Part shown: positions 3,946 through 30,775 of the stretch, in pieces
Numbering within the stretch: position 1 is the first letter of the stretch
Layout of the letters: every line of letters begins with the position of its first letter
NCBI GenBank assembly: GCA_963708255.1
Contig: CAVPSE010000005.1
Coordinates: forward strand, 182,347 to 246,346
DNA length: 64,000 nucleotides
Reading direction: 5' to 3'
Source of the DNA: an uncultured Thermoplasmata archaeon
GTDB lineage: Archaea > Thermoplasmatota > Thermoplasmata > Lutacidiplasmatales > UBA184
The notes under the pieces: generated by a model
Databases searched by the model: none
Seen by the model: the letters and a program-made list of their open reading frames with translations, nothing else
Told to the model about the DNA's origin: nothing
Position numbers and translations under genes: made by a program

Positions 3946-6086
3946 GTGCGAACTAGGATGGCAGAGACCGAGGAACAGCCGCGGGGCGGCTCCCAGGTGC
4001 GAACCGCGCGGCTAGGTCTCTTCGTCCTGATCGTAGGGGTCACGCTCGTGACCGTGCTGGGCGCCATGAGCCCATCCCATTCGGCCGGCCCGCAGGCCGC
4101 CGGCCCCGGGCGAATCCCCGGGGTCACGTCGTTTAGCCCCAACCCCCTCTCGGTCGGGGGCCTGACGACCACGATCTCGGACTCGCTCCAGCTTGGGATC
4201 TCGGACAATCCCCACACGATCTGCGCCTTCGGGGCCGATTCGTGCCCCGCCGGGGTCGGGCTCTCGCGCGTCACGCTTTCTGCCGCCGCGGGGAGCTCAG
4301 GAGTGCTCGCCTGGCCGAACGTCGAGATCGCCTTCGTGATCGAGACCACCGCGTACGACGGGGTGTACGATCCGACCGCCAGCGATCCGGGGCTGGACCC
4401 CTGCGCCGGCGCGGCCGCGGGCTCCGGTATCGTCTGCGAGGAATCGAACGGGGTTCCGTTCTTCGTCGCGAACGCGCAGCTCATCGCCAACTCGATCTCC
4501 GCGGCGAACCCTCACAGCCAGGTGTCGTTCGCGATGGTCGACTACTTCGCCAACATCAACAACTGGGACGACGGCGACGGGGCCGAGTACCACGTCGACA
4601 TCCCCCAGTTCATCCCGTCCTCCCAGTTCGGCCAGGCCGTGAAGTCGACGTTCCAGGCGACCGTGCTCAACGGTAACTGGTCTACGGCGACTCGGACCTG
4701 TCTGACAACCAGCTCACCGCGTCGACGATCACCGCGATGTACGGGACGATCATGGGATCGGGCCTGGACTGGACGAACGACACCCACCACGTGATCGTCT
4801 GGATGGGCTCTACGGCCCCGAGGGACCCGAACTATCCGGAGGACTACTGCGTGGCACCCGACGACCAGTTCTACGCGTACGAAGGGTGCACCGGGTCCAC
4901 CTGCGAGCCGTCGTACCAGTTCCCGACGGGGTCGAGCCCGCAGTGCGAGGGTTGGGTCAAGAGCCAGGATGGCAACGCGACCCACTCGATCGCAGCGCTC
5001 GCCAAGACCTCCCCGTCGTGCACCGGGTCGGTCGGGGGGGTCTGCACCGTGGATGCGATCGACTACTACGACACCCCGACCGATTATGAGAGCCAAGGGT
5101 GGCCCAGCGGCGCTCACAACGGCGGACCGGGCGGGTCGGCCGTGGTCCAGGACGCCTCCCACATCATTCTCGCAGGGTGTGACATCGCAGCTGCGACGGG
5201 AGGGACCTGGGACGGCCCCGCCTGGGCCTCCTGCCCCGATGGAGAGGCGGGAACGCTCCAGTACGTCCCCCACGGGTCGTACTCCTCCCCCAGCACGTCG
5301 AACCCCACGCTGTTCAACGCGCTTCGGCAGGTCGGGTTCGGGCCGGTCCTGGAGACCCAGGTGGCGTCGGGCTCCAATCACCCGATCTTCTCCTTCGTGC
5401 CGTTCGGCAACATCGCCCCCGCTCCGGCCAGCGAGCTGCAGGCGACGGCCTCGTGCGTCCGCAACGGGATCGACCTCCGGACCTGCCAGACGGAGCCCAC
5501 CCTGGTGAACTTCGATGGAGTGAGCTACCTGGGGTGGAACTGGTCCACCAACTCGACGTCGAATGTGATGTTCCTCGGCGACTACTGGACGGCGTCGTTC
5601 AACATCATCGCCAATGGCCCGCCGTACGCCTCCGTGCCGATCGACGCCTGCACGACCACGGACTGCAAGGCGGGCGGTAGCGGGGCGATCAACGGTCTGT
5701 ACTCGTGGGCGTCGTACGTGCCGTACACGAACAACACGGTGATCACGGAGTCGTTCCCGCTCGCCCAGGTGACGGTCCAGCTGACACCCGCGGCGACCTC
5801 GCCTCCGAACGTGCCGCCGGCCCCACCGCCCGCGCCGCCTCCGTTCCCGATCCTGGCGCCATCGCCGCTGCCGGTGGTTCAGCAGATCGGGGTGGGCAAC
5901 AGCGTCGGAGTGGCGAACGTCTCGCTGCAGGCGACGGCCGCCGGGTTCTTGGGCGCAGGGTTCACGACGATCAGCATCAAGAACCGGCCCGTGGCGATGA
6001 AGGTCGCCGCGAAATCCGGTACGTTCCGGTCGGCGTTCGACAAGGAAGTCGGCAAGGGCGACACCGGCATCGGCCGGTTCGAGTAG
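3946..6086 (+). pseudogene. Secreted Cys-rich vWA-like surface protein, tandem paralog copy 1, broken by a 1-nt deletion near 4690 (ORFs 3946..4794 and 4737..6086 are the two halves)
   Basis: About 90% nucleotide similarity by eye to 6519..8648 along the whole length. Copy 1 reads aactggtctacggcgac where copy 2 reads aactggtactacggcgac. N-terminal signal anchor; vWA-like beta-alpha pattern (VAFVIETT.YDG, SFAMVDYFAN, HVIVWMGSTAP); Pro-rich linker and a conserved C-terminal domain. Confidence 0.6.
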
Positions 6087-6518: not shown

Positions 6519-8648
6519 ATGGAGATGAGGGAGGACGTTACGCCGACCAGTCCCCGAGTCCGGAAACTCCGATTGGGCGTTCTTGCGCTGATCTCCGTCG
6601 TCGTCCTCATCACCGTGCTCGGATCGTTCGGCCCTGTCCACGGGACCCCCACGAGGGCCGGTGGCTCCGCTACGATCGCCGGCGCCAGCCCATTCGCTTC
6701 GAACGCTCTTTCCGTCAGCGGGCTCACCACGTCGATCTCGGATTCGCTCCAGCTAGGGATATCGGACAACCCCCACACCATCTGCGCTTTCGGTGAGAAC
6801 TCATGCCCGGCCGGCGTCGGCCTCTCCCGTGTTACCTTGTCCGCCGCGGCGGGGAGCGCGGGCGTCCTCAGCTGGCCCAACGTCGAGGTCGCCTTCGTGA
6901 TCGAGACCACCTCGTACGACGGGGTCTACGACCCTACCGCGGCTGACCCGGGGGGGGATATGTGCGCGAACGCGGCGATCGGGACTGCGACGCTCTGCGA
7001 GGAATCCAACGGGGTTCCGTTCTTCGTCGCGAACGCGCAGCTCATCGCCAACTCGATCTCCGCGGCGAACCCCCACAGCCAGGTGTCGTTCGCGATGGTC
7101 GACTACTTTGCCAACATCAACAACTGGGACGACGGCGACGGGGCGGAGTACCACGTCGACATCCCCCAGTTCATTCCCTCCTCCCAGTTCGGCCAGGCGG
7201 TCAAGTCGACGTTCCAGGCAACCGTCCTCAACGGGAACTGGTACTACGGCGACTCGGACATGTCGGACAACCAGATCACCTCCTCGTCGATCACCGCGAT
7301 GTATGGGACCATCGTCGGGTCGGGGCTGGACTGGACGAACGACACCCACCACGTGATCGTCTGGATGGGATCGACCGCGCCCCGCGACCCGAACTACCCC
7401 GAGGACCATTGCGTCTCACCCGAGGACCAGAACTCGGCGTACTTTGGGTGCATGGGCGCGACGTGCGAGCCGTCGTACCAGTTCCCGACAGGGGCGAGCC
7501 CGCAGTGCGAAGGGTGGGTCAGGAGCCAGGACGGCAACCCGACCCACTCGATCGCGGAGCTCGCCAAGACCGCTCCCTCGTGCACGGGATCCGTCGGAGG
7601 CGTCTGCACGGTGGATGCGATCGACTACTACAACACCCCGACCGACTACCAGAGTCAGGGGTGGCCACTGGGCCGCACGAACGGTGGGCCGGGCGGTACC
7701 GCCGTCGTCGAGGACGTGTCCCAGATCATCCTGGCCGGATGTGACATCGCGGGAGCGACCGGTGGCACGTGGGACGGCCCTGCGTGGGCCTCCTGCCCCA
7801 ATGGGCAGGCCGGTACGCTCCAGTACGTTCCCCATGGGTCGTATTCCGCCCCGGGCACCACCAACCCGAGCTTGTTCAACGCGCTCCGCCAGGTCGGGTT
7901 CGGCCCGGTGCTGGAGACCCAGGTGGCATCGGGCTCCGACCGACCGATCTTCTCGTTCGTGCCTTTCGGTAACATCGTGCCGGCACCCGCGAGCGAGCTC
8001 CAGGCGACCGCCTCGTGCGTCCGGAGCGGGATCGACCTCCGGAGCTGCCAGACGGAACCCAGTGTCGTCAACCTCGACGGCGTGACCTACCTCGGGTGGA
8101 ACTGGTCGACCAACTCGACGTCGAACGTGATGTACCTGGGGGACTACTGGACCGCCTCGTTCAATATCATCGCCAACGGCCCGCCGTACTCGACGGTGCC
8201 GGTGGACGCGTGTACGACGACGCCCTGCGAGGCCGGTGGGAGCGGGGCCATCAACGGCCTCTACTCGTCCGCCTCGTTCGTGCCATACACGAACAACACG
8301 GTGCTCACGGAGTCGTTCCCGCTCGCGCAAGTGACCGTGCAGCTGACGCCCACGGCGACATCACCTCCGACCGTGCCGCCGGCTCCACCGCCGGTCCCGC
8401 CCCCATTCCCGATCCTGGCCCCGTCGCCGCTGCCGGTCGTGCAGCAGATCGGCGTGGGCAACAGCGTGGGGGTGGCGAACCTGTCGCTGCAGGCGACGGC
8501 CGCCGGGTTCCTGGGCGCCGGGTTCATGACGATCAGCATCAAGAACCGGCCCGTGGCGATGAAGGTCGCGGCGAAGTCCGGCACGTTCAGGTCGGCGTTC
8601 GACACGGAAGCTGGCGAGGGCGATACCGGCATCGGGCGGTTCGAGTAA
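6519..8648 (+). CDS. Secreted Cys-rich vWA-like surface protein, tandem paralog copy 2 (intact, 709 aa)
   Basis: Uninterrupted ORF. N-terminal hydrophobic anchor, many Cys and N-x-S/T sites, a PPAPPPVPPPFPILAP linker, and C-terminal ...GFLGAGFMTISIKNRPVAMKVAAK...GIGRFE. About 150 bp of upstream sequence is also duplicated. Confidence 0.75.
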   Translation: MEMREDVTPTSPRVRKLRLGVLALISVVVLITVLGSFGPVHGTPTRAGGSATIAGASPFASNALSVSGLTTSISDSLQLGISDNPHTICAFGENSCPAGVGLSRVTLSAAAGSAGVLSWPNVEVAFVIETTSYDGVYDPTAADPGGDMCANAAIGTATLCEESNGVPFFVANAQLIANSISAANPHSQVSFAMVDYFANINNWDDGDGAEYHVDIPQFIPSSQFGQAVKSTFQATVLNGNWYYGDSDMSDNQITSSSITAMYGTIVGSGLDWTNDTHHVIVWMGSTAPRDPNYPEDHCVSPEDQNSAYFGCMGATCEPSYQFPTGASPQCEGWVRSQDGNPTHSIAELAKTAPSCTGSVGGVCTVDAIDYYNTPTDYQSQGWPLGRTNGGPGGTAVVEDVSQIILAGCDIAGATGGTWDGPAWASCPNGQAGTLQYVPHGSYSAPGTTNPSLFNALRQVGFGPVLETQVASGSDRPIFSFVPFGNIVPAPASELQATASCVRSGIDLRSCQTEPSVVNLDGVTYLGWNWSTNSTSNVMYLGDYWTASFNIIANGPPYSTVPVDACTTTPCEAGGSGAINGLYSSASFVPYTNNTVLTESFPLAQVTVQLTPTATSPPTVPPAPPPVPPPFPILAPSPLPVVQQIGVGNSVGVANLSLQATAAGFLGAGFMTISIKNRPVAMKVAAKSGTFRSAFDTEAGEGDTGIGRFE

Positions 8649-8818: not shown

Positions 8819-9376
8819 TCAGTCGACCTGTGGGTGAGTCCGGTCCCCATGCTCGCCGCCGCGCAACGGGAGTCGGGCCTCGACGTGGTGAACCGGGCCC
8901 CCACGTCCCAGGACGCTCGATTTCAGGAGGAGCTCGGTCACCCGGGTCGTCCCGAACGGCGTTTCCGAGAAGCGGGTCCGCAGAACATGGGCCAGCGCGG
9001 CGTCCTTCGGTGACCGGACCCTGAGAACGGTAAGGTGGGCCACGAACGGCCGGTCCTCCACAGGGAGCCCGTGCGATCGGGCCACGGCCACCAGCCGGTC
9101 GTGCAGGCGGGCGAGCTCCGCGGTGCCCTCGGCGATGCCGACGAACACGACTCGCGGCCGTTCGTCGGAAGGGAACGCACCCAGCCCGTGGAGGCGCAGC
9201 TCGAAGGGGGGCTCGGACTCCACCGCGCGCGCGAACGAAGCTCCCAGCGGGGCCGCGGCAGCGGCCTCGATATCACCGAGGAAGAGCAGGGTAAGGTGGC
9301 TCGGGGCTCCCTCCCCAGGCGTCCGGATGCCGGGGAGCTCCGGGGTCGGCAGCTCGACGGCGACGAACGCTCGCAC
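8819..9376 (-). CDS. thpR: RNA 2',3'-cyclic phosphodiesterase (2H phosphoesterase, ThpR/LigT family)
   Basis: Two H-x-T-x motifs (HLTLLFLG and HLTVLRV) in a roughly 185-aa protein. Overlaps the stop of the upstream ATPase gene by about 20 nt. Confidence 0.8.
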   Translation of the reverse strand: MRAFVAVELPTPELPGIRTPGEGAPSHLTLLFLGDIEAAAAAPLGASFARAVESEPPFELRLHGLGAFPSDERPRVVFVGIAEGTAELARLHDRLVAVARSHGLPVEDRPFVAHLTVLRVRSPKDAALAHVLRTRFSETPFGTTRVTELLLKSSVLGRGGPVHHVEARLPLRGGEHGDRTHPQVD

Positions 9377-9394
9377 GACACCGTGAGACCGCCG

Positions 9395-11982
9395 TCACCG
9401 ATGAAGTCGGCCGTCCGGTCCCCGCCGGGCCGCCTTCGGGAGGGTCCAGACACCGGCCCGGCCGGGATAGGCGCCGGCAGCCTCCAGCACCGCTCGGACC
9501 CGGCGGGCCCGGGCCCCGTCGGCGACCAGGAAGAGCACGAACGCCCCCACCCGCTCCCCTTTCGACAGCCCGCGCCGGATCCGCTCGGGCCGAAGGGCTC
9601 CGGACACCTCGGCCTCCACATGCACGTCCCGGCCACGAAAGTAGCGCCACCCCCACTCCCCCCGGTGGCGCTCCAGCGCGTCGTAGAGTTCGCCGGGGGA
9701 GCGCGTCTCCTCGGGAAGCTCGGCGATGCGGACCCGCGCGTCGGGGAGCCGCGTGTCGAACCTCCCCTGCCGGATCGGCTCCAACCGGAGCCCGTGACGC
9801 GCGAAGATCCGCGCGGCCTCCACCACGAGCGCACGATGCTCCGAGCTTTCGGTCGCCGCCCCGGTCGGCGCTCCGATCCCCAGGATCCGCGCGCCGGCTG
9901 GCGTGATCCCGAGACGGCCGTCGTGGGCCTCGAGCCATCCCCGCCGGAGAAGCCGTCCGGTCCGAGCCACGGTCCGGTCCGCGGAGTCCACCGCCGCCGC
10001 CGCGCTCTCGACCCACGGGAGGGGATGGCCACGTTCCTGGGCTCCCCAGACCTCGAAGAGCACCTGGTCATCCTCGCCCGGGAGCCACGGTTCCTCCGGA
10101 TCGACCGGACCCACCGTGGCGCGGGTCGACGCAGTGAGGGATTCCCATGCCCCTCGGGGGGACGAGGGCAACGGTCGGGTGGAGACGAGCCGGGCGGGCA
10201 CTCCGGGGGTGGCGGCGAGGGCGTGACCGACCGGAAGAACCGGGAGCCACCGGCGGGCCTCGGCGTCCGAAAGCCCGATCCATGCGCCAGTGGTTCGCGC
10301 CGCCGCGGCGGGGACCCGGAACAGGACGTGCGAACCGGCTGCCCCGGCGGCCGCGGCGCGCAGTTCGGTCGACCATCGCTCCGGGTACTGGGTCGCCAGG
10401 AGGAGCGACACGCCGAACTTGCGACCTTCGCCCAGGATCTCTGAGACGAGCCGGGGGGAGAACGCATGGGCCTCGTCGAGGACGAAGAGGCATTCCGGGG
10501 CCCCGGCACCCCCGGCCGGCGGACCGCCGCGAGGTACGCCCGGGTCGCGAGCAGCGTCGCCGCGAAGGTGCTCGCTTCCGGACCCAGGGTCCGGAACGGG
10601 ATCCGGACCAGCAGGGAGCCCCCGGTCGAAAGCCAGGGACCGAGCTCCACGCCGCCGCTGGGCGGGGCGAGAAGATCGCGCAGCCGCTCCGACAACAGGA
10701 CCTTGGTGACGCGGGAGGCCGCCGGCCACAGGAACTCCGGGCTCCGCCGTTCGATCGCCGGCAGCTCCTCGAGGAACCGGGCGAGCTCCGGTCGACGTGT
10801 GGTGAGGCGTGCCGCCTCCCGCCGCCGCGGGTCCGTCAGGAGCTCGGCGAGGTCCGAGAGATCTCCCCCTCCTCGAGGGTGAGCCGGACGAACGTGTCGA
10901 ACAGCCGTTCCAGCCGGAACCCCCAGTACACCTCCGAGCCCTCCACCGAGAGCCGTTTGAGCGCCGCCACGAGCTCCTGGGCCTCGCTCTCGCCATCGGC
11001 GTCGGGAGCCAGGATCCTCACGCCGGTCCGGGTGCCGGCCGCTCCCTCGACGTCGACGGCTGCGACCTTCCCGTGAGGCATCCCCGCGAGGAGTGCCGAT
11101 GTCGCCGGGGCCAGGTCGCCGTGGATGTCGAAGAGGACCACGCTCCGTCCCGTTCGAAGCCGCTCGGCCGCGACGGACGCGAGCATCGAGGTCTTCCCGC
11201 TGCCGCTCGCGCCCACGACGACCGTGTGCAATCGGAGGTCGGCGTCACGGGGGAACGGAGGCGCCGGGGGTCCCGGGACGGCGGAGGCGGCCCGGGCCGG
11301 AGGCACCATCACGGGTCCGCGTGCGCAAAGACCGGGCAGTGTCCCTCTCTCCCAGGCCCGCCGGGCTCGCCATCCGTCGGCCACTCGCCGGGGGCGGATC
11401 GGAACCGCCGCGGACCGGCCGAGCAGCTCCGCCACCGGCACGGCGGCCGCGAGGAGCCGGCCCCCGAGTTCGTGGGCCGGTGACGGCGACCCGGACGCGG
11501 GCCCACACTCGCAGACCCTCCGGCCCCCCGGGGAACCAGTGCCACTGGGCCGACGACCCCGTCTGTTCATCGAACCGTTCGCCGACCGGGCGAAACGGGG
11601 GGGTGCTCGCGGTCCCGGCGGGATCGGTCGTTCGCCGGCCCTCGTCGACGGGGAGGGGGTTCGCTCTCGCGGGGGTGGGGAGGCCTTCGAGCACGGCGTA
11701 CGCGACGATCTCGCCGCCCCTCCGAACTACCCGGGGAAGGGCGACGGACCGGCGCAGGGTTCCCGGGAGCCCTTCGGCCGCGGAGACGATCAACATCGCC
11801 CCCTCCGGCGTGGCCGGGACGAGGAAGGGCGAGGGGGTCCCCGCGTGTCGCTCGATGAGGAGGCCGAGTCCGGTGGGCGCGAACGCCATCCGGCTGGCCA
11901 CCCGATCCAGGAACTCGGCCGCCCAGGCGCTCCCGGCGGTCCGGAACTCGTAGACGGGGAGGCCCGATCCCGCGGCCCCCAT
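9395..11982 (-). CDS. HerA/FtsK-like P-loop ATPase (DUF87/AAA_10 type) with an extra C-terminal domain of about 200 aa; broken by at least two frame changes, near 10860 and 10490, the latter in a G/C run
   Basis: Walker A VVVGASGSGKTSMLAS (in ORF 10836..11570). Walker B and Arg-finger region CLFVLDEAHAF...LGEGRKFGVSLLLATQYP (in ORF 9395..10996). An intermediate segment is in the frame of ORF 8938..10695. N-terminal barrel-like domain in ORF 11245..12117 (MGAAGSGLPVYEF...). The start ATG overlaps the TGA of the upstream small gene. Confidence 0.6.
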
Positions 11983-12317
11983 CACCGGCACCGTCCTCTC
12001 AGCTCGAGGATCTCCGCCTCGAGCTGACGGAGCCGGCTCCGCCGGGCGTACTCCAGCAGGGTCGAGGTACCGAGGGTCCTCCGTACGGGGTGATCGCCCT
12101 CCCAGAGACGGAGGCACCAGAGCTCCCGCCCGTCAGGGAGCCGGTACAGGGTCGCCCACGGTTGGTACGCACCCGCGATCGGGACGCGGAGGCGTCCTAC
12201 CCGGACGACGCGGTACGGCGCGCCGGAGCGCGGCGCCGTTCCCGAACGGCTGGCGTGGTCGGCGATGGCGAACGGAACGGGTTCCCAGGTCGGTGTAACG
12301 GGGCGCGTACGCGCCAT
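11982..12317 (-). CDS. Small hypothetical protein (111 aa), translationally coupled to the HerA-like ATPase
   Basis: ORF with protein-like composition (YRLPDGRELWCLRLWEGDHPVRRTLGTSTLLEYARR). Its stop TGA overlaps the ATG of the downstream gene by one nucleotide. Confidence 0.4.
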   Translation of the reverse strand: MARTRPVTPTWEPVPFAIADHASRSGTAPRSGAPYRVVRVGRLRVPIAGAYQPWATLYRLPDGRELWCLRLWEGDHPVRRTLGTSTLLEYARRSRLRQLEAEILELRGRCR

Positions 12318-12983
12318 AGAGAACTCCCGGGACCCCCGGCCGCGGCACCAGCGACCTGGGGTCCCCTCGCGGGTCGGGGGCGTCGGGCACGAGCCCGATC
12401 ACCCAGGTCGTCGGGACCCCGGGGATGCCCGGCGGGAGCACCGCCGCCCGGGGTCGGTCAGCCCGTCCGAAGGACGGGGAAGGTCTCCTCCAAGCCTGCC
12501 GGGGCCGCGGGAGCGCTCTAGTTGAAAGCGCTCAGGCTCGCGGTGCCGTCGGGAGGGTCCCCGCCCTCACCGTGCCGGCGTCGGGGGTCGGTTCGGTCCT
12601 CGGAGCGCCGGGGGGCCGATGGATCGGCGGGTCCGGTCTCCGGGGGCCGTGGCGTTCGGGGCGACGCGCGGTGTCGGGTTCCTTCGACCGGTCGAGATCG
12701 ACGGGGTCGAAGCAACGGGGAACCAGCGTGGGCCCGTTCTGATACGCCGAGCCGATCGGCCCGGGGGGATGGAGGCCGAGGCCCTCACTGAACGATGAAA
12801 GGTGGGGTCTCGAGCACGAAGGGGGAAGGGATGGAAGACCCCGCCGCACGCCAGGGACGCGGTGCCGTCCCTCTAGGCGATGTGAGCGGGGTCTTCCGGG
12901 GTGGTTGCAGACCAACAGTGGGTATCCGGGGTATTTGAACGCCGGATCGGGGGGTGGTGAAACACCCCCTCGTGAGGGCGTTG

Positions 12984-14374: not shown

Positions 14375-15336
14375 ATGCGGTTCCGGACGTACGACGAGCT
14401 GACCCCCTCGATGGAGGTCGACCGTTCGCTCCTCCACCTCGCCGCGTTCAACGGGGTCTTCGCCCGTCGTTCTGTCGACATCTGGCGCCGCCGGGCGAAG
14501 GCGTTCGCCGAGTACGTCGGGCTGTTCGCCGAGGAACGCGGGCGCCTGGTCGGACAGATGTTCGTGCTCCGGATCGCGCTCACGCTCCCGAGCGGGCGGG
14601 AGACCGTGACCGGCATCGCCGGCGTCGGGACCCGGCCGGACCGGGGCGGCACGGGGGTCGCCCGGCGGCTCCTCACGGAAGCGCATCACCGCGAGAAAGA
14701 GGCCGGGATCCGGGTACTCGACCCTATGGACGAACCGGTCGTGGGGGGCGCATCGGCTGTACGAGAAGCTGGGATACCGGGACGTCTACTCCTCGCCGTG
14801 GGCGGTCCATGCCCCGCTCGATCCGTTGCCCCGGAAGCCCCGTGGGGCCTGACCCCGGCCGGCGCGCGGACCTCCCCGATATGGAGAAGCTCCATGCGAA
14901 GCAGGCCGAGGGACGCCTCGGGTTCGTCCGGGAGCCGAACGGCTACTTTTCGGCCTGGGTGGCCGCCGGCGATCTGGATCCCGCCCACGACCTCGTGGTG
15001 GTCCGTGGTGGGGGACGCGTTCAGGGGTACGCGCACATGGAGGTCTCGAAGCCCCGCGTGATCTGTGGCGAGATCGTGGCGAGCTCCTCGGCGGTCCGCC
15101 GGGCGCTGGTCCGGGAGGTGGAACGCCGAGCCGGCCGCCGGCCGTTCGCGTTCCAGATGACCCCCGTGACCGACACGCCCGAGCTCTTCCGGGGGAGCGG
15201 GTTCTCCAACTCTCCCCAGGGGTGGTACGTGTTCATGGCGAGCGCCCTCCGGCGCGCGTGGTCCCCACGGGCCGCGATCTCGGAGCTCGGAACCCAGGAC
15301 CGTCGGTTCCTCTGCCTCTCCGGGGATCGGTTCTAG
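14375..15336 (+). CDS. GNAT N-acetyltransferase with C-terminal SCP2-like domain (Eis-like); frameshifted in a GGGGGG run near 14750 and again near 14850
   Basis: GNAT motif GIAGVGTRPDRGGTGVARRLL and ...RLYEKLGYRD in a third frame. C-terminal domain MEKLHAKQAEGRLGFVREPNGYF...VICGEIVASSSAVRRAL in ORF 14287..15336. Confidence 0.6.
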
Positions 15337-17999: not shown

Positions 18000-19158
18000 T
18001 CAGCCGCTCCGCGGCGGCCGCGGGGCGGGGGCCGAGGAACGGCCCGGACCGAACAGGGTCGGGTCGAGGTCGCTCTTCTCGCCCAGCACCGCCCGGGCGA
18101 CGCGGCGGGTCGACGCCGGCGCGAGCATGAACCCGTGGCCCGCGAACCCGTTGGCGTGCACGAAACCGGGGAGCCGAGGGTCCTCGCCGATCACCGGGAG
18201 GCCGTCGGGGGTGTCGTCGTAGAACCCGGACCATGCCCGAAGGACCCCGATCCGGCCCAGGCGCGGGACGAGGCCCGTCAAGGCCCGGGCCATGGAGGTG
18301 AGGAACTCCGGGGAGCTCGGCATCCCGAGGCGGGTGCCCGGGGGCGGGTGGAGCGTGAGCCCCCCGACGATCTCGCCCCGCAGGGTCTGGCTGAAGTACA
18401 GGCCGTCGGAGGGTCCGGACCACCATCGGGTCCAGGAACGGTTTCATCGGCTCGGTGGCCAGGATCTCGTGCCGGCTCGCGACGTTGGGGGCCTCGAGCC
18501 CGGCCATCCGGCTGACGTCGCCGGACCACCCGCCGGCCGCGTTGACGACGATGTCGGCCCGGAGGGGACCTTGAGACGTGTCGACGCCGGCCACTCGGCC
18601 TCCTTCCGTCCGAAGTCCTTTCACCTCCGTACCGAGGAGGACCTCGACGCCCTGCCGACGGACCGCCTCGTAAAGGCCCCAGATCGCAGGGAACGGGTAG
18701 AGCGTCCCATCGGTGCGAAGGAACGTGCCCCCGACGATGCGGTCGATCGAAAGGCACGGCGCGCGCTGGCGGACCTGCTCGGGGTCGAGGACACGGGCCG
18801 GCAGTCCCTCGGCCGCGACGACCCGCTGGACCCCTCGGAGCCGGTCGAGCTCGGCCTCGGTTTCCGCGAGGAAGAGGTAGCCCCCCTGCCGGAACCAGAT
18901 GTTGTAGCCGAACTCCGTCCCGAACCGCCGGTAGTCCTTGACCGACTCCCGGGCGAGACGGACCGTCGCGGCGGTCTCCCACTGCTGCCGGACCCCGCCC
19001 CCGTTCCGCCCCGAGGCCCCGGCGGAGAGGAAGCCCCGGTCCAGCACCACGATCGGCCCGGCGCCGGCCGAGGCCAGGTGATGGGCGGTGTAGAGGCCGA
19101 TGATGCCTCCACCGACGATGGCGATCCGGTAGTCGGAGCGGGAGGGACCGTCGGTCAC
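18000..19158 (-). CDS. FAD-dependent oxidoreductase, SoxB / L-proline dehydrogenase beta-like (DAO family); frameshift near 18425
   Basis: GTG start inside a GTGA overlap with the upstream gene. YRIAIVGGGIIGLYTAHHLA (FAD Rossmann). C-terminal GFYDDTPDGLPVIGEDPRLPGFVHANGFAGHGFMLAPA in ORF 18000..18323. Confidence 0.65.
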
Positions 19159-20800
19159 GGCGTCTCCGGCGGAATCCCGGCGAGCGCCGAGAGCGGGGTC
19201 GGGGTGACCGGGGGCCGCTGGGTGATGTACCCCACCTCCGACGGCGGCCGCCCCTCGAGCTGGCTCAGGAGCAGGATGACGTCGGGGAGGCAGTAGCGAC
19301 CCTGGCAAAGGCCGGTCCCTGCGGCCGTGTACCGCTTGATCACTTCGATCCCCCGGTACCCGCGGTGGGACGCTTCCTCGATCTCCTCCAGGAGCACATC
19401 CTCGCACGGACAGAGCACGAGCTTGCCGCGACCCCGGGGCCGGCCGAGCCACTCCCGATAGTAGCCCTCCAGCTCCCCGGGAACGTCGTCCGCGACGCGG
19501 GGGGGCGCTCCGACGGCGCGACCGAGTCCCCGAGGAGCTCCCGGGCGGCCGCCGCCCCGCTGGAAGGGGACCCGGCCGCGTCGACGAATCCGGCGGAGGT
19601 GCCGGCGGCCCACAATCCGGGAACGGTGGTGGCGCATCCCTGGAGCTCCGGATAGTACGCCCCGCCCGTCGAACGCCAGGCCATGCGGGCCCCTGCCTGG
19701 AAGAACAGCTGTGGGTTCGGGAGTCGCCGGTGCGCCAGGACGATCGCGTCCGCCGGGACGATCGTTGGGACACCCCCCCCGCGGGCCGCGAGGCGGACCG
19801 ACCGGACCCGCCCGCCGCCATGGGCGCCGAGGAGCAAGGTGCGGGGGTAGACGGGCACCCCGAGCCGGGCCGCCCGCTCCGCGACGAGGCCGTGGACCGC
19901 GCCCGGGGCGACCACCGCCTCGACGCGCTCCCCCCACGTGTCGAGAAGCGTTGCGACCCGGGGGCTTCCCCCGACGAGAACGGCGTGGCGGAACGGCGGA
20001 GCGCCCTCGGGGGCGGAGATCGCGAGCGCGCCGTCCGCCGTGAGAACGCCGGGGCGATCGTTGCCAGGGAACATCAGCGGGCCATCGTACCCGCCCGTGA
20101 CCACGAGAACGCGCTTCGCGGAGATGGAGATCCCGACCGTACCGTCCCGCACCGCCAGGGCGCGGAACGGCCGGTCCGGGTCGGGGCGGCCGGGGAGGAA
20201 CGACAGCTCCGTTCCCCCGAGCCACGGGACCCCGGCGACCTTTGGGAGTCCGGGGAATCGTTCGACGACCGTAGGCACGATCCCTCGATCGAGCAGGATG
20301 CGTGCGGCGTCAGAGCCGCTCCGCCCGCCCCCGACGATCAGGACGTCCGTCTCGATCCGCTCCCCGGGCGTAGGGGGAGGGGCCGGCGTGTCCGGGACAC
20401 GACCGTAACCGGCCAGGCGCCGGACGACGCGCTGGTAGAGGGGGGTGAACGCCCGGGGACGCCGGAACCCGTGGGACGTGTCGAGACCGCGGGGGAAGAG
20501 GTGGTCGAGCAGGCCCATCATGTCCCACCGGGGGGATGGCCACGCGTTCTCGGTCCGGATCGCGTCCCCCGGGGAGGGGACGTACCGGCACCCGCGGACA
20601 TTAGGGACGCCGTTCACCCGCACGAGGCAGCCGGTACACTGTCCCGTCCCGCAGAACGGGGCCCGCGGCCGGTGGTATCGGATGGACCGCTGGAGGACCG
20701 GGATCTCCCGGTGCGAGAGGGCCTGGACGAGCGTTTCCCCGGGCGCGGACGCCAGCGGGCGCCCGTCAAAGCGGGCCTCCCGCGGCCTTTCGCTCGCCAT
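19155..20800 (-). CDS. SoxA/HcnAB-like alpha subunit: N-terminal 2Fe-2S domain fused to an FAD/NAD pyridine-nucleotide oxidoreductase with a BFD-like [2Fe-2S] domain; frameshifted between about 19450 and 19700
   Basis: CGTGQCTGCLVRVNG (2Fe-2S). DVLIVGGGRSGSDAARILLDRG (dinucleotide fold). BFD-like LCPCEDV...EVIKRYTAAGTGLCQGRYC in ORF 19155..20225. Confidence 0.6.
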
Positions 20801-27599: not shown

Positions 27600-27891
27600 G
27601 CTACCCCCACCGCGGCAGATAGGTATTTTACTATTACGTATGCGATACATGAGGCCCGGCTCCGGTCGCGAGGATATGGTCCCGCCGGGGGCCGGTGTCG
27701 GGGTCCCAGGCAAACGGACGCCGGATCCCAAAGCACGGGATGGGTCCGACATCACCGCGACGTTCGGGCCAGCTCCTTGGCGGATTCCCTGACGCCCTGG
27801 GGCCTCCTCCCATCCAACGCTGACGCGCGTGGGAGGAGGGGACCCGCAGGGAGGTACGCGGGTCCCGGAACGGGTTGTGGAACAGGATCCC

Positions 27892-30775
27892 TCAGTTCTC
27901 GTTCTGGAACTTAGCGGTCCCTGCCGATCCGCCCTGGGCATTCGTCCCGAACACGCCGACGCTGCCCTTGGAGCCAGTGCCGCCGTTCGTCCCGCTGGCG
28001 GCCCGGTGGGAGCCCGCCCCGTCCGTCCCGCCGAGCCCTCCGCTACCGGCGCTGCCGCCGGAGCCCAGGGCACCGCCGATACCGGGACAGGCCGTGCCCG
28101 CGGCGCAGTTGTTGACGCCACCGTTCCCACCGACGATGCTGTTCGCCCCGAAGGTGAGCCCGGAGACCGAGGTGTGGGACCCGTTGAAGATCGCGCCCCC
28201 TTCGCCCGCCCCGCCGTTCCCTCCGGCGCCCGACCCTCCGCCCGTGCCCCCGGTGCCGCCGGTGCCGCCGGAACCTCCGTTGCCACCGACGGCGCCGGAT
28301 CCTACCGTGGTGCCGGATCCCCCGTTCCCGCCGTTGCCGCCGGTGCCTCCGGTCCCGCCGCTGCCGCCGGTGCCAGCGTTGCCGCCGGCCCCCCCGGACG
28401 CGCCGGCACCGCCGACCGCGGAGTTGTACGTGAAGACGTCGGTGGTGAGGGTGAGCGTTCCGGAGCTGAACCAGGCTCCGCCCTCCGCGGTGCCGCCGAC
28501 GCCGCCGGTCCCGCCGAGGCCGCCGGTGCCACCGTTCGAGGTGTTTCCGCCGAAGCTGCCGGAACCACCGGCCCCGACCGGAGCCTCCCTTCCCTCCGGA
28601 GACCCCGCTGCCCCCCGAGCCGCCCGATGTGCCCGGCGCCCGGACCCGCCGGTGCCGCCCGAGCCGCCACCCCCGCCGTACCCGCCCGTGCTGCCGGCCC
28701 CGCCGGTGGCGATACCGAATTGGAAGGTGGAGGCGCGCGAAGAGGCCGTTCCGCTCGCGTAAACGCCTCCGCCCATCCCGCCCCCTCCGGCGCCCGCAGG
28801 TCCGCCGGCCCCGCCGTTACCGCCCAGGCCGCCCGGCGCCCCGGCCGACGTGGGCTGGCCGCCTGCGCCGCCGGCTCCGCCGTTCTCGGCCGGAGAGTTC
28901 GAGCCACCCGAGCCACCGGACCCTCCGAAACCGCCCTGGCCCGCCGCACCGCCCGTCGACCCGAAGATGCCCGAGCCGCCCGGACCTCCGTACCCCCCCG
29001 TGCCTCCGGTCGCCGTGGCCTCGTAGATCAGTGTGTTGTTGAGCCACAGGTGGACGCCACTCGAGTAGACCGCGCCTCCGGTACCCGCCCCGCCGATGCC
29101 GCCACCGCCCCCCGCGCCCGCGGTCCCGGGAGAGCCGGGCTGAGCGGCAGCCCCGCCCGATGCGCCGCTCGCGCCGGCACCCCCGGTCCCACCCGTCCCC
29201 GTCGTGCTGGGAGCACCGTTGCCGCCCGCGCCGCCGCGACCGCCGGTGTCACCGATGCCGCCGTTCCCGCCGGCGCCGCCCTGTTCGCCGCTGCCGCCGC
29301 TGCCGCCGCTACCACCATACACGTGGTTGTACTCGATCGTGCTGTTGAAGATCGTCACCGTTCCGGGTACCTGTAGATCGCACCGCCTCGGCCGGCGCCG
29401 GCCGCGCCGCCCTTGCCACCAGCGCCGCCGGCCCCGCCGGTCGCGCCGTTGGAACCCGCGGAGGCCGCCCCGCCGGCTCCGCCGCTGCCGCCGTTCCCGC
29501 CCGAGCTCGACGGAGTTCCACCGTTCCCGCCACTACCGGCGAGAGCCGCTCCCCGCGCCGCCGCCGCCGCTCCCGCCGAACCAGCCTGTGCCTCCGGACC
29601 CCCCGGTTCCGCCATAGGCGTAGTTACTTTCGAAGAAGGAGCCGGTGACGTTGAGCTTCCCGGTGTTGAACACCGCGCCGCCCTCGCCCACGCCGCCGCC
29701 CCCGGCGACCCCGCCGTTGCCCGCCGCGCCGCCCGCGGCCGACGCGCCGTTCGTGCCGGATGCGCCGCCGGCGCCGCCCCGAGTGCCGGTGGACGGAGTG
29801 CCGCCCATCGCGCCGGAGCCGCCACCTCCGCCGGCCCCGCCCGCCCCACCGGACCCACCGGTGGCGCCCGCTCCCCCCGTGCCGCCGTCGACTTGGTTGG
29901 ACTCGAAGATGGCGTTGGTGAGGACGAGGGTGCCAGCGTTGTAGATGGCACCGCCCTCGGCGGCGCCCCCGGCTCCCCCACTCCCGCCATTGCCGCCGTT
30001 GCCGCCCGTCGCTCCTGCGCCGCCGGCTCCGCCGGCGCCCCCCGCCGAGCTCGATGGGTTGGTGGGGCTCGCGCCGGTGCCTCCGCTCCCGCCGGCACCC
30101 CCGGCCCCGCCGGCCGCCCCGTTGCCCCCGGTCCCGCCGGTGCCACCGACCGCCTGGTTCGAGTAGAAGTTGTCCGAAACGAGGATCACGGTCCCGCTGG
30201 TGATCTGGATGGCGCCGCCCTGGGCTGTGCCTCCGGCCCCGCCGTTGGTACCAGCGCCTCCGGCGCCGCCGGGCAGTGCCGGTACCGCCCGTGCCTCCGG
30301 CCTGGCCGGTGCCCCCAGTCCCGCTACTGCCCGTCGCCCCATTGGAGCCGGTGCTCCCGGCGGTCCCGGTACCTCCCGTGGTGCCGGCCTTCCCGGCGAC
30401 GTGCCCGCTCTCCAGGGTGATGGAGGTGATATTGAGATGGCCGCCCTTGACGAGGAAGAGCTGGCTGGTCGAGCCGCCGGTGAACGTGATTGAGAAACCG
30501 CCCGACGTGATGTTCACCGTCAGGGTCGAGCCGATGGTGACCGCCGAAGTGAAGGTCATCGTGCAGGCGGCGCCGAACGTGACCGTGCCGCCGAGCGCGA
30601 CGTCGCTCTTGAAGGTGGTAAAGGTGCACGGGGAAATGACCGTCCCGGCCGAGTGCCGGAGAGGTGCCGTGTGGCCGGCCGCGGTCGGCAGGACCGCCAC
30701 GAGCAGGAACACCGTCACGAACGCGATCAGACCCCACAGACCCGGCCGTACCTTGGACACCGACAACTCGAACAC
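27892..30775 (-). CDS. Giant Gly-rich surface protein of about 960 aa with repeated GGA[IVW]-[FY]-N...F-x-x-N motifs (Pmp-like, predicted parallel beta-helix), an N-terminal signal peptide, at least four apparent frame changes inside the repeats
   Basis: Minus-strand fragments 29624..31441 (part), 29533..30342, 29355..30146 and 27892..29358 join in order. Repeats include [79 protein letters not shown] and [26 protein letters not shown]. Signal peptide [29 protein letters not shown] follows a GTG at 30775. The plus-strand Pro-rich ORFs are its antisense. Confidence 0.6.

Follow-up and report, generated by a model that had tools for sequence, protein, structure and literature searches.

We found that a minus-strand operon in the 64-kb window (the whole stretch of DNA analysed, 64,000 nucleotides from an uncultured Thermoplasmata archaeon) is a conserved three-gene unit of soil Thermoplasmata archaea. 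Its central protein is best read as a soluble, ring-type P-loop DNA motor of the VirD4/TrwB kind with a predicted nuclease-like module at its C-terminus, and the operon may provide the DNA processing that is so far missing from an archaeal system of DNA transfer. The features of the locus are as follows.

8819..9376, minus strand: ThpR/LigT RNA 2',3'-cyclic phosphodiesterase gene, 185 aa
9377..9394, minus strand: spacer of 18 nt from the ATPase stop to the ThpR start
9395..11982, minus strand: ATPase-nuclease gene, 862 aa after three single-base corrections
9398..9886, minus strand: predicted PD-(D/E)xK-like (restriction-endonuclease fold) domain
9887..10150, minus strand: helical linker and predicted winged helix-turn-helix
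10151..11246, minus strand: P-loop motor with an all-alpha insertion
about 10460-10486, minus strand: Walker B FVLDEAHAF, followed by EGRKFG and ATQYP
10495..10496, minus strand: frame break 3, GG; GGG restores …PGPRECLFVLDEAHAF…
10865..10869, minus strand: frame break 2, a run of five G; the orthologous reading …LEEGGDLSDL… requires six
about 11190-11213, minus strand: Walker A GASGSGKT
11247..11982, minus strand: N-terminal domain, about aa 1-245
11481, minus strand: frame break 1, one A surplus relative to orthologues, corrected by deleting the A
11982..12317, minus strand: small partner gene, 111 aa

ORF calls at these gene positions agreed with the three co-directional genes described in an earlier note on this DNA. 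The small upstream gene is tightly coupled to the ATPase gene, as claimed there, and in the TGATG overlap at 11982 one base is common to its TGA and the ATPase ATG. An overlap of about 20 nt proposed for 9376-9395 does not exist, with the ATPase stop lying at 9395-9397 and the GTG of ThpR beginning at 9376. The spacer between them contains a GGTG a few bases ahead of that GTG, and its median length in relatives is 25 nt. Rfam searches of the region upstream of the operon gave no match at the gathering threshold or at E <= 1.

As assembled, the ATPase gene is spread over four frames. Where two frame corrections had been proposed, tblastn with intact relatives, the junction sequences and the corrected ORF showed that three are required, and the corrected protein of 862 aa is stop-free and 74% identical end to end to its relative P0001 (859 columns). 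Three frame breaks within 2.6 kb of the window sequence as given could be taken as the mark of a decaying pseudogene, a reading that we regard as extremely improbable. A comparison of the window with an intact relative's genes by tblastn revealed 10 frame breaks across 22 kb, spread over 6 of the 17 genes compared, metabolic genes included, so the breaks are not confined to the ATPase gene. Two of its three breaks lie in G runs, the three single-base edits leave no stop and all invariant motifs intact, and in 78 of 80 loci of related genomes the orthologue is one uninterrupted ORF. Because the breaks are scattered throughout the window we attribute them to assembly indels; the ATPase gene is not a pseudogene.

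The motor motifs listed in the earlier note (VVVGASGSGKTS, FVLDEAHAF and GEGRKFGVSLLLATQYP) were all found, their key residues are invariant across the ATPase family, and the assignment to the FtsK/HerA superfamily with an additional C-terminal nuclease-like module held. The addition does follow the ATPase core and comprises about 250 residues. Comparison with PDB structures placed the motor nearer to coupling proteins than to HerA, and its nucleotide-binding domain contains an inserted all-alpha domain, as in type-IV coupling proteins. The protein is proposed to form a hexamer and to act on DNA. Its strongest PDB relatives also include the defence or repair translocases DptH, TdpA and HerA, which counts against a coupling role. 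The barrel-like N-terminal domain expected from the earlier note is not supported: in an AlphaFold2 model of the homologue P0002 strands and helices alternate in residues 11-212, and a HAS-barrel is not predicted. The modelled domain is mixed alpha/beta, starts beta-alpha-beta-beta-alpha-beta and has a disordered loop at about aa 104-135; a profile search of this region against PDB sequences gave no match.

Classical type-IV coupling proteins (TrwB of R388, VirD4, TraG/TraD, DotL) carry an N-terminal membrane anchor, whereas no transmembrane segment was found in the ATPase described here (Kyte-Doolittle maximum 1.42 in a 19-residue window, with nothing reaching 1.6). The missing anchor speaks against the coupling model, and archaeal relatives encoded in secretion-like clusters also lack one. 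The protein further differs from the classical coupling proteins by its alpha/beta N-terminal domain of about 245 aa, its C-terminal winged helix and nuclease-like domain, and its location in a core chromosomal locus rather than on a plasmid or ICE. It scored far under the curated cut-offs of TraD/VirD4-like models (TIGR03743, 15.7 vs 366; NF045973, 16.9 vs 250). With HerA-NurA it shares the superfamily, the EGRKFG and (T/S)Q motifs and the logic of a translocase plus a nuclease. NCBIfam HerA models nevertheless gave it only 16-28 bits against cut-offs of 800-970 (NF040937, 26.2 vs 800; NF040819, 15.7 vs 970). Its nuclease-like domain is fused and of predicted PD-(D/E)xK fold, whereas NurA has an RNase-H fold, and it has neither a predicted HAS-barrel nor NurA, Mre11 or Rad50 nearby. 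These three were not found among the relatives' gene calls within 10 kb on either side or, by Pfam, in ten other long ORFs of the window. The earlier statement that this is not a HerA-NurA-Mre11-Rad50 operon stands.

The C-terminal module is predicted to consist of a winged helix and a PD-(D/E)xK-like fold, the predicted structure showing the alpha-beta-beta-beta-alpha-beta core. Invariant residues of the nuclease-like domain are E…H, QG, LPD, E-A-E-V, R, R and K. Among them are the PD and the E-A-E, while Glu occupies the lysine position and an invariant Lys lies on the next helix. This corresponds to the less common D…ExE form of the motif, a variant known from BamHI, and counts against the coupling model. 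The domain is probably of the PD-(D/E)xK endonuclease type and may have nuclease activity. A search with its profile matched only 98 proteins among 1.84 billion, and the matches outside the family were long TraG-D_C / TrwB_AAD_bind / DUF87 ATPases that retain the EH…PD…ExE…K pattern (hhalign 96% and 93%). All three of these with readable context are encoded at the end of archaeal T4SS-like clusters, in the position of the coupling protein, as listed here.

L089: T4SS_pilin, TrbL_3, TraC-like and DUF8128 ahead of the ATPase
L092: TrbL_3, TraC-like, DUF8128 and a 158-aa gene
L088: PrgI_like/TraC-like, AAA_10 and DUF8128

These ATPases (P0212, P0215 and P0216 of loci L088, L089 and L092) are the sole owners of the nuclease-like domain outside the family, and like the ATPase described here they are DUF87 / TrwB_AAD_bind / TraG-D_C motors without a membrane anchor. 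Locus L092 also resembles the operon in having a small gene immediately upstream of the ATPase. They differ in length (1000-1400 aa against 862 aa) and in being encoded right after TrbL_3, TraC-like and DUF8128 genes in apparently mobile clusters of 53-56% GC, and the similarity between the nuclease domains is remote (E 1e-5 to 1e-11). A search of the archaeal T4SS-like clusters for homologues of the 111-aa protein and of ThpR found none; the coupling model does not account for these conserved partners, and their absence from conjugative clusters counts against it.

A VirB4-type operon was not found within the window. In the closest relatives such an operon encodes a 127-aa two-helix pilin-like protein, a 383-aa protein with seven and a 123-aa protein with three transmembrane helices, a VirB4-like ATPase and a 173-aa protein. 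Four Lutacidiplasma-type loci encode a VirB4-like ATPase and polytopic membrane proteins that are convergent with, and abut, the ATPase-nuclease gene; this VirB4-like ATPase matched NF045971 at E 1.7e-39, which is well under the model's curated cut-off. In an intact close relative carrying P0003, an ATPase 70% identical to the one described here, the VirB4 operon lies on the same contig about 72 kb from the triad, and no other VirD4-like gene was called beside it. For twelve VirB4-like matches the longest contig has the same length as for ATPase-nuclease matches, and co-occurrence of the two was judged only by shared contigs. In most genomes, and probably also in this one, the VirB4-type operon is not adjacent to the ATPase gene, which is a further point against the coupling model. 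A physical or functional link between the two might nevertheless exist. The connection to type-IV-secretion-like transfer had escaped the earlier note and draws on data from beyond the window.

The 111-aa protein is basic (pI 11.3). Its variable N-terminus bears an EP[VLI]P-type motif, and about 75 aa form a conserved core (G..R.P.AGPY.PWA.LY..PDGR..W.VRLWE.DR...). Scans against Pfam, NCBIfam, PADLOC and PHROGs gave no match to it, and a 31-sequence profile of the small protein searched against all PDB sequences reached a best E of 0.11. A gene with the 75-aa domain adjoins the ATPase start in 58 of 73 loci. Of the 15 loci that lack the domain, about 9 retain at this position a short ORF that is rich in Pro and Arg and carries an EP[LIF]P-type motif. 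ThpR is, as had been claimed, a true 2H phosphoesterase, with 108.3 bits to TIGR02258 against a cut-off of 65.7, a Pfam LigT_PEase match at 7.5e-20 and two HxT motifs (HLTL at residue 27, HLTV at residue 114). Compared with known ThpR/LigT proteins it is ordinary; what is unusual is its fixed place directly 3' of a coupling-type ATPase (71 of 77 loci).

More than 300 full-length ATPase homologues of about 860 aa each were found, and 143 species-level genomes carry the gene. The family is confined to Lutacidiplasmatales-like Thermoplasmata, and a search of the literature on HerA in Thermoplasmata, on HerA with a 2H phosphoesterase and on MADS yielded no description of it. Synteny around the ATPase gene extends over a block of about 14 kb and was seen in about 80 species-level genomes. 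Conservation of the triad alone was therefore rejected as proof of a functional link, and independent information on it comes only from the Lutacidiplasma loci and from L086, where the locus is rearranged. In L086 the small gene (E 5.7e-11) and ThpR both remain with the ATPase; in the Lutacidiplasma loci the ATPase and the small gene stay paired and ThpR is shifted at least 6 kb away. Co-divergence was measured by all-against-all pairwise identities, since correlating identities to one reference was uninformative, that reference being about equally distant from all others. The pairwise identities of the ATPase correlate with those of glycerate kinase (r 0.85) and SHMT (r 0.69). The gene is core and single-locus, and its inheritance looks vertical. 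The viral contig collection contained no relatives of the ATPase-nuclease, and tblastn against the plasmid collection yielded only actinomycete coupling proteins of 27% identity, in two records and over the ATPase core only.

Archaeal conjugative elements have a VirB4/VirD4 pair and no recognisable relaxase (PMC6563490, PMC9905601), and for the Ced system the export ATPase and the DNA-processing enzymes are still open questions (PMC11868833). The Ced/Ted systems of Crenarchaeota are chromosomal, vertically inherited T4SS-like apparatuses, and the same idea is proposed here (PMC9905601, PMC11868833). They comprise a VirB2-like pilin, a VirB6-like channel and a VirB4-like ATPase, to which the operon of the relatives corresponds by topology and by its VirB4 match. 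A VirD4-like or nuclease-fused component such as the ATPase of this operon is not described for them in these papers (PMC9905601, PMC11868833), and they occur in Crenarchaeota whereas the operon belongs to Thermoplasmata. To the CedB/CedD models the ATPase shows P-loop similarity only (25 bits against cut-offs of 600-700). We tentatively propose, at a little under even probability, that the ATPase is the coupling and DNA-processing ATPase of a chromosomal, vertically inherited Ced/Ted-like DNA-transfer system in Lutacidiplasmatales-like Thermoplasmata. The winged helix and the nuclease would bind DNA and then nick or cut it, and the hexameric motor would pump it to a membrane apparatus of VirB4, VirB6-like and pilin-like components whose genes lie elsewhere in the genome. 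With its gene translationally coupled to that of the ATPase, the small basic protein could serve as an accessory DNA-binding or adaptor factor; ThpR would be co-transcribed with the ATPase. Doubtful, though worth stating, is a more specific version in which the winged-helix and PD-(D/E)xK module substitutes for the relaxase in archaeal T4SS-like transfer, the coupling-protein-nuclease has been chromosomally fixed together with a VirB4/VirB6-like/pilin operon for Ced/Ted-like exchange, and the small protein and the 2H phosphoesterase are lineage-specific accessories.

Among other explanations, stand-alone genome maintenance by a one-polypeptide analogue of HerA-NurA, which would process DNA ends or recombination intermediates and have no link to secretion, is unlikely. 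It would fit a core, single-locus and vertically inherited gene that lies far from the VirB4 operon in most lineages, and the structural relatives include HerA-NurA and D. radiodurans HerA. In 53 of 80 loci ThpR has an HhH-GPD DNA glycosylase gene as its neighbour, but this adjacency carries little weight because the entire block is syntenic. Against stand-alone maintenance, the motor resembles coupling proteins more closely than HerA, and the relatives of the nuclease domain with readable context all lie in T4SS-like clusters.

Anti-phage or anti-plasmid defence, in which the ATPase would sense or translocate foreign DNA, the nuclease would be the effector and ThpR would degrade a nucleotide signal or repair collateral RNA damage, seems improbable to us. 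Defence systems commonly join a nuclease and an NTPase in one protein, DptH, TdpA, HerA-DUF4297 and HerA-Sir2 are among the structural relatives of the ATPase, and mad8 was its best PADLOC match (2e-14, covering most of that model). The suggestion of a defence system in the earlier note was nevertheless not borne out: a search of the locus with PADLOC-DB 2.0 matched no complete system, the ATPase core alone resembled mad8 and HerA models, and neither the small protein nor ThpR had any match. The operon differs from DptH (the DndH C-domain), TdpA, HerA-DUF4297 and HerA-Sir2 in lacking their partner genes, with no methyltransferase, phosphorothioation or other such genes adjoining. It lies in a conserved housekeeping block and not in a variable island, the ATPase gene co-diverges with its metabolic neighbours, and the virus and plasmid searches also argue against defence. 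RNA repair or processing is very improbable; here the ATPase would translocate RNA, the PD-(D/E)xK-like domain would cut it and ThpR would heal 2',3'-cyclic phosphate ends. Judged by its model score ThpR is a genuine 2',3'-cyclic phosphodiesterase; it follows the ATPase at a near-constant distance of about 25 nt and in L086 has kept its place beside the small gene and the ATPase, but its displacement in the Lutacidiplasma loci leaves the other two genes together. The close structural relatives of the motor all act on DNA, and the invariant cluster of acidic residues (D, E, E) points to a metal-dependent nuclease; an enzyme of this kind with the PD-(D/E)xK fold would leave 3'-OH ends and not cyclic phosphates.

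Among archaeal conjugative plasmids, integrated elements and the Ced/Ted systems there are VirB4- and VirD4-type ATPases, yet no relaxase is recognisable, and the step of cutting and feeding the DNA is open (PMC9905601, PMC6563490, PMC11868833). A coupling-type motor with DNA-binding and nuclease-like domains of its own is a testable candidate for this step. This coupling-nuclease type occurs in archaeal T4SS-like clusters and also, fixed in the chromosome, throughout an order of soil archaea that are abundant. Should there be no link to secretion, the family would still represent a translocase-nuclease in a single polypeptide, so far uncharacterised and accompanied by an orphan protein; if the proposal is true, it would indicate chromosomal DNA exchange in uncultured, high-GC Thermoplasmata of acid soils.

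In the window we found three co-directional genes on the minus strand that form a compact triad:

12317-11982, minus: small-protein gene, 111-aa ORF (ORF call)
start 11982, stop 9397-9395, minus: ATPase-nuclease gene (ORF call and tblastn)
9376-8819, minus: ThpR/LigT gene, 185-aa ORF (ORF call and family models)

The stop codon of the small-protein gene and the ATG of the ATPase gene have one base in common, which confirms the TGATG overlap at 11982 described in an earlier note made from the sequence alone. That note had also proposed an overlap of about 20 nt between ATPase and ThpR genes, where the sequence reads …CAT CGG TGA, 18 nt, GTG, and thus contains a short spacer. Its assignment of the downstream gene was correct: this is a genuine ThpR/LigT gene by Pfam (LigT_PEase, 7.5e-20), TIGR02258 (108.3 bits vs a cut-off of 65.7) and motifs, with both HxT motifs found.

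With intact relatives as tblastn queries the ATPase gene of the window fell into four frames, and all junctions between these were single-base events:

11481, minus: one surplus A
10865-10869, minus: G run of five where six are needed
10495-10496, minus: GG where GGG is needed

Three edits, only two of which had been recognized before, restore a stop-free protein of 862 aa with 74% end-to-end identity to P0001, an intact orthologue from a related genome. When the genes of one intact relative were compared with the window by tblastn, 10 frame breaks were seen in 6 of 17 genes, among them genes for two oxidoreductases, an acetyltransferase and a surface protein (examples in region 1-22000: 19475-19505, 18410-18415, 14697-14837, 4680-4683, 436-437 and 2342-2364). 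A pseudogene, in which the broken frames would reflect decay, is very improbable. Because breaks also occur in other genes and the orthologue is a single ORF in 78 of 80 related loci, we read the ATPase breaks as apparent indel errors of the assembly and do not favour gene decay. The frequent breaks across 1-22000 indicate an apparently indel-rich assembly, and ORF-based readings of the window require frame correction.

The homologue search gave over 300 full-length proteins with lengths of about 860 aa, and all named ones came from Thermoplasmata MAGs. A scan with one genome per species yielded 143 genomes carrying the gene, nearly all of them labelled as Thermoplasmata, including Lutacidiplasmatales. 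The GC content of the window fits the ~69% described for the latter (PMC9287336); at 28000-30000 G+C reaches 0.77-0.78 with a strongly negative GC skew (-0.17 to -0.18), and long ORFs overlap on opposite strands (27829-29376, plus; 27892-29358, minus). The family alignment is invariant at residues of both Walker motifs (A and B), at RKF within EGRKFG and at the Q of ATQYP. A full-length AlphaFold2 model (pLDDT 82.8) was made from the intact orthologue P0002. Its N-terminal domain is mixed alpha/beta with no beta-barrel, contrary to the barrel-like domain claimed earlier; the P-loop domain carries a large helical insertion, the motor leads into a helical linker that includes a winged helix, and an alpha/beta domain lies at the terminus. 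These domain identities are well supported. In kind the protein is an FtsK/HerA-superfamily motor with a nuclease-like domain; literature searches did not find a description of this family.

The triad lies in a syntenic clade-wide block of the order SO-alpha / DAO / glycerate kinase / (MFS) / 200-aa gene / HxlR / small / ATPase / ThpR / HhH-GPD / 927-aa gene / SHMT. Of the 73 loci with enough flank, 58 have the small protein's 75-aa core directly against the start of the ATPase gene. ThpR directly follows the ATPase in 71/77 loci, and the spacer between them varies strikingly little (median 25 nt). As the whole block is syntenic, this conservation alone proves little, and the informative cases are the exceptions. 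At L086, a locus of a divergent subfamily, the neighbours differ and small gene, ATPase and LigT are still together; four Lutacidiplasma-type loci keep small gene and ATPase together, with ThpR absent within 6 kb. In about nine of the 15 loci that lack the 75-aa domain, the position is taken by a short ORF, rich in Pro and Arg, which bears an EP[LIF]P-type motif, ends at the ATPase start and encodes some 30-60 aa when read from its last Met:

just upstream of the ATPase start, in L020, L030, L045, L052, L061, L070, L076, L078 and L084: short Pro/Arg-rich ORF instead of the 75-aa domain gene

The motif also occurs in the variable N-terminus of full-length small proteins (EPVPFA in the window) and may be a short linear motif that binds the ATPase. 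Between genomes, pairwise ATPase identities correlate with the identities of glycerate kinase (r 0.85) and of SHMT (r 0.69). No relatives were found in the viral contigs scanned, and the plasmids scanned gave distant ATPase-core matches only. The locus is, by these comparisons, apparently core and vertically inherited, not an island.

The block also contains insertions. Two tandem paralogues of a Pro-rich protein of 707-709 aa (3958-6086 and 6519-8648, plus), the first of them frame-broken, are inserted between ThpR and HhH-GPD, which abut in most related genomes; they had no Pfam matches and are probably surface-exposed. At 14375-15336 (plus) lies a gene for a GNAT-type acetyltransferase, in which the frame is broken twice. 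It was present in the window and its closest relatives and in 0/80 more distant loci, and is apparently an insertion specific to this lineage within the syntenic block.

Shortly past the HxlR gene, ahead of the operon, a stretch of DNA keeps 70-85% identity across about 75 related loci; two features were recognized in it:

12932-12939: TATA-like TTCAAATA
12908-12822, minus: candidate structured small RNA, hairpin of 65-87 nt, starting about 30 nt past the TATA-like element

The latter, a candidate new structured small RNA, would form a long irregular hairpin (fold energy -48.8 kcal/mol, z -5.8) with a conserved single-stranded GCAACCACCCC before and a T/C-rich tract after it. It is kept in about 70 Thermoplasmata loci and had no match in Rfam. 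Over 63 sequences 94% of cells were paired vs 36-53% with partners slid, and compensatory changes occurred at 17/23 pairs. Where gene insertions separate the element from the operon, it stays with HxlR. Directly past the HxlR stop there is a further conserved hairpin or palindrome, AAC-[stem-loop]-GTTTC (about 12955-12983, minus), whose inner stem covaries between genomes (for example GCCCTC/GGGGGT vs GGCTCG/CGAGCC) and which could either terminate HxlR or bind a protein.

A profile of the nuclease-like domain found only 98 matches among 1.84 billion representative proteins, and nearly all of these share the 860-aa architecture. The few outsiders are longer ATPases (1000-1400 aa) that match TraG-D_C, TrwB_AAD_bind and DUF87, and in them the EH…PD…ExE…K pattern is kept (hhalign 96% and 93%). 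All three that lie on contigs long enough to judge take the place of the coupling protein in archaeal T4SS-like clusters:

L089: TBP, T4SS_pilin, DUF8186, TrbL_3, TraC-like, DUF8128, then ATPase
L092: TrbL_3, TraC-like, DUF8128, 158-aa gene, then ATPase
L088: DUF8186, PrgI_like/TraC-like, AAA_10, DUF8128, then ATPase

At the Lutacidiplasma loci ThpR is displaced by a convergent operon encoding a VirB4-like ATPase (NF045971 E 1.7e-39, below the curated cut-off of that model) and polytopic membrane proteins. VirB4-like homologues are widespread in MAGs that have the ATPase-nuclease, and for 12 of them the longest contig is equal in length to that of an ATPase-nuclease match. In the genome of orthologue P0003, an intact close relative whose ATPase is 70% identical, the VirB4-like operon and the triad share a contig at a distance of ~72 kb, with no other VirD4-like gene called beside the operon:

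127-aa protein, two hydrophobic helices with a basic loop between
383-aa protein, 7-TM
123-aa protein, 3-TM
VirB4-like protein
173-aa protein

A conserved chromosomal T4SS-like operon of these Thermoplasmata was seen at L009 (8502-14454), L011, L041, L055 and L090 (5608-12244), with a pilin-like two-helix protein, 7-TM, 2-TM and 3-TM proteins, a VirB4-like ATPase and a protein of 173-182 aa. With 55-78% identity to the query, the VirB4-like protein is more conserved than the coupling-type ATPase. Its gene is absent from the 64-kb window, which fits the position past the window end where collinearity with the P0003 genome would put the operon.

We tentatively favour, as a real possibility somewhat short of probable, that the ATPase-nuclease serves a T4SS-like DNA-transfer system, fixed in the chromosome, as its coupling-type ATPase, with nuclease and winged helix processing DNA, because archaeal conjugative elements typically carry a VirB4/VirD4 pair without a recognisable relaxase (PMC6563490, PMC9905601) and the export ATPase and DNA-processing enzymes of the Ced system are still unknown (PMC11868833). 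The fused winged helix and nuclease-like domain would do DNA recognition and cutting, with the small basic protein as a putative accessory factor. We infer the link to the secretion operon from homology, adjacency in one lineage and shared contigs.

The main rival, a stand-alone repair translocase-nuclease, has the coupling-protein position of the outsiders against it; we consider it rather unlikely. The coupling-ATPase reading does not explain what the small protein and ThpR do. An RNA-repair module with ThpR, which would have the constant ThpR spacing on its side and the Lutacidiplasma-type loci against it, is quite improbable. The defence link suggested earlier is improbable, as PADLOC gave similarity to the ATPase core only (mad8 2e-14, HerA models) and no match for small protein and ThpR. 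Read as a coupling-type ATPase, the ATPase-nuclease is a candidate, open to testing, for the DNA-processing step still missing from the picture of archaeal DNA transfer.
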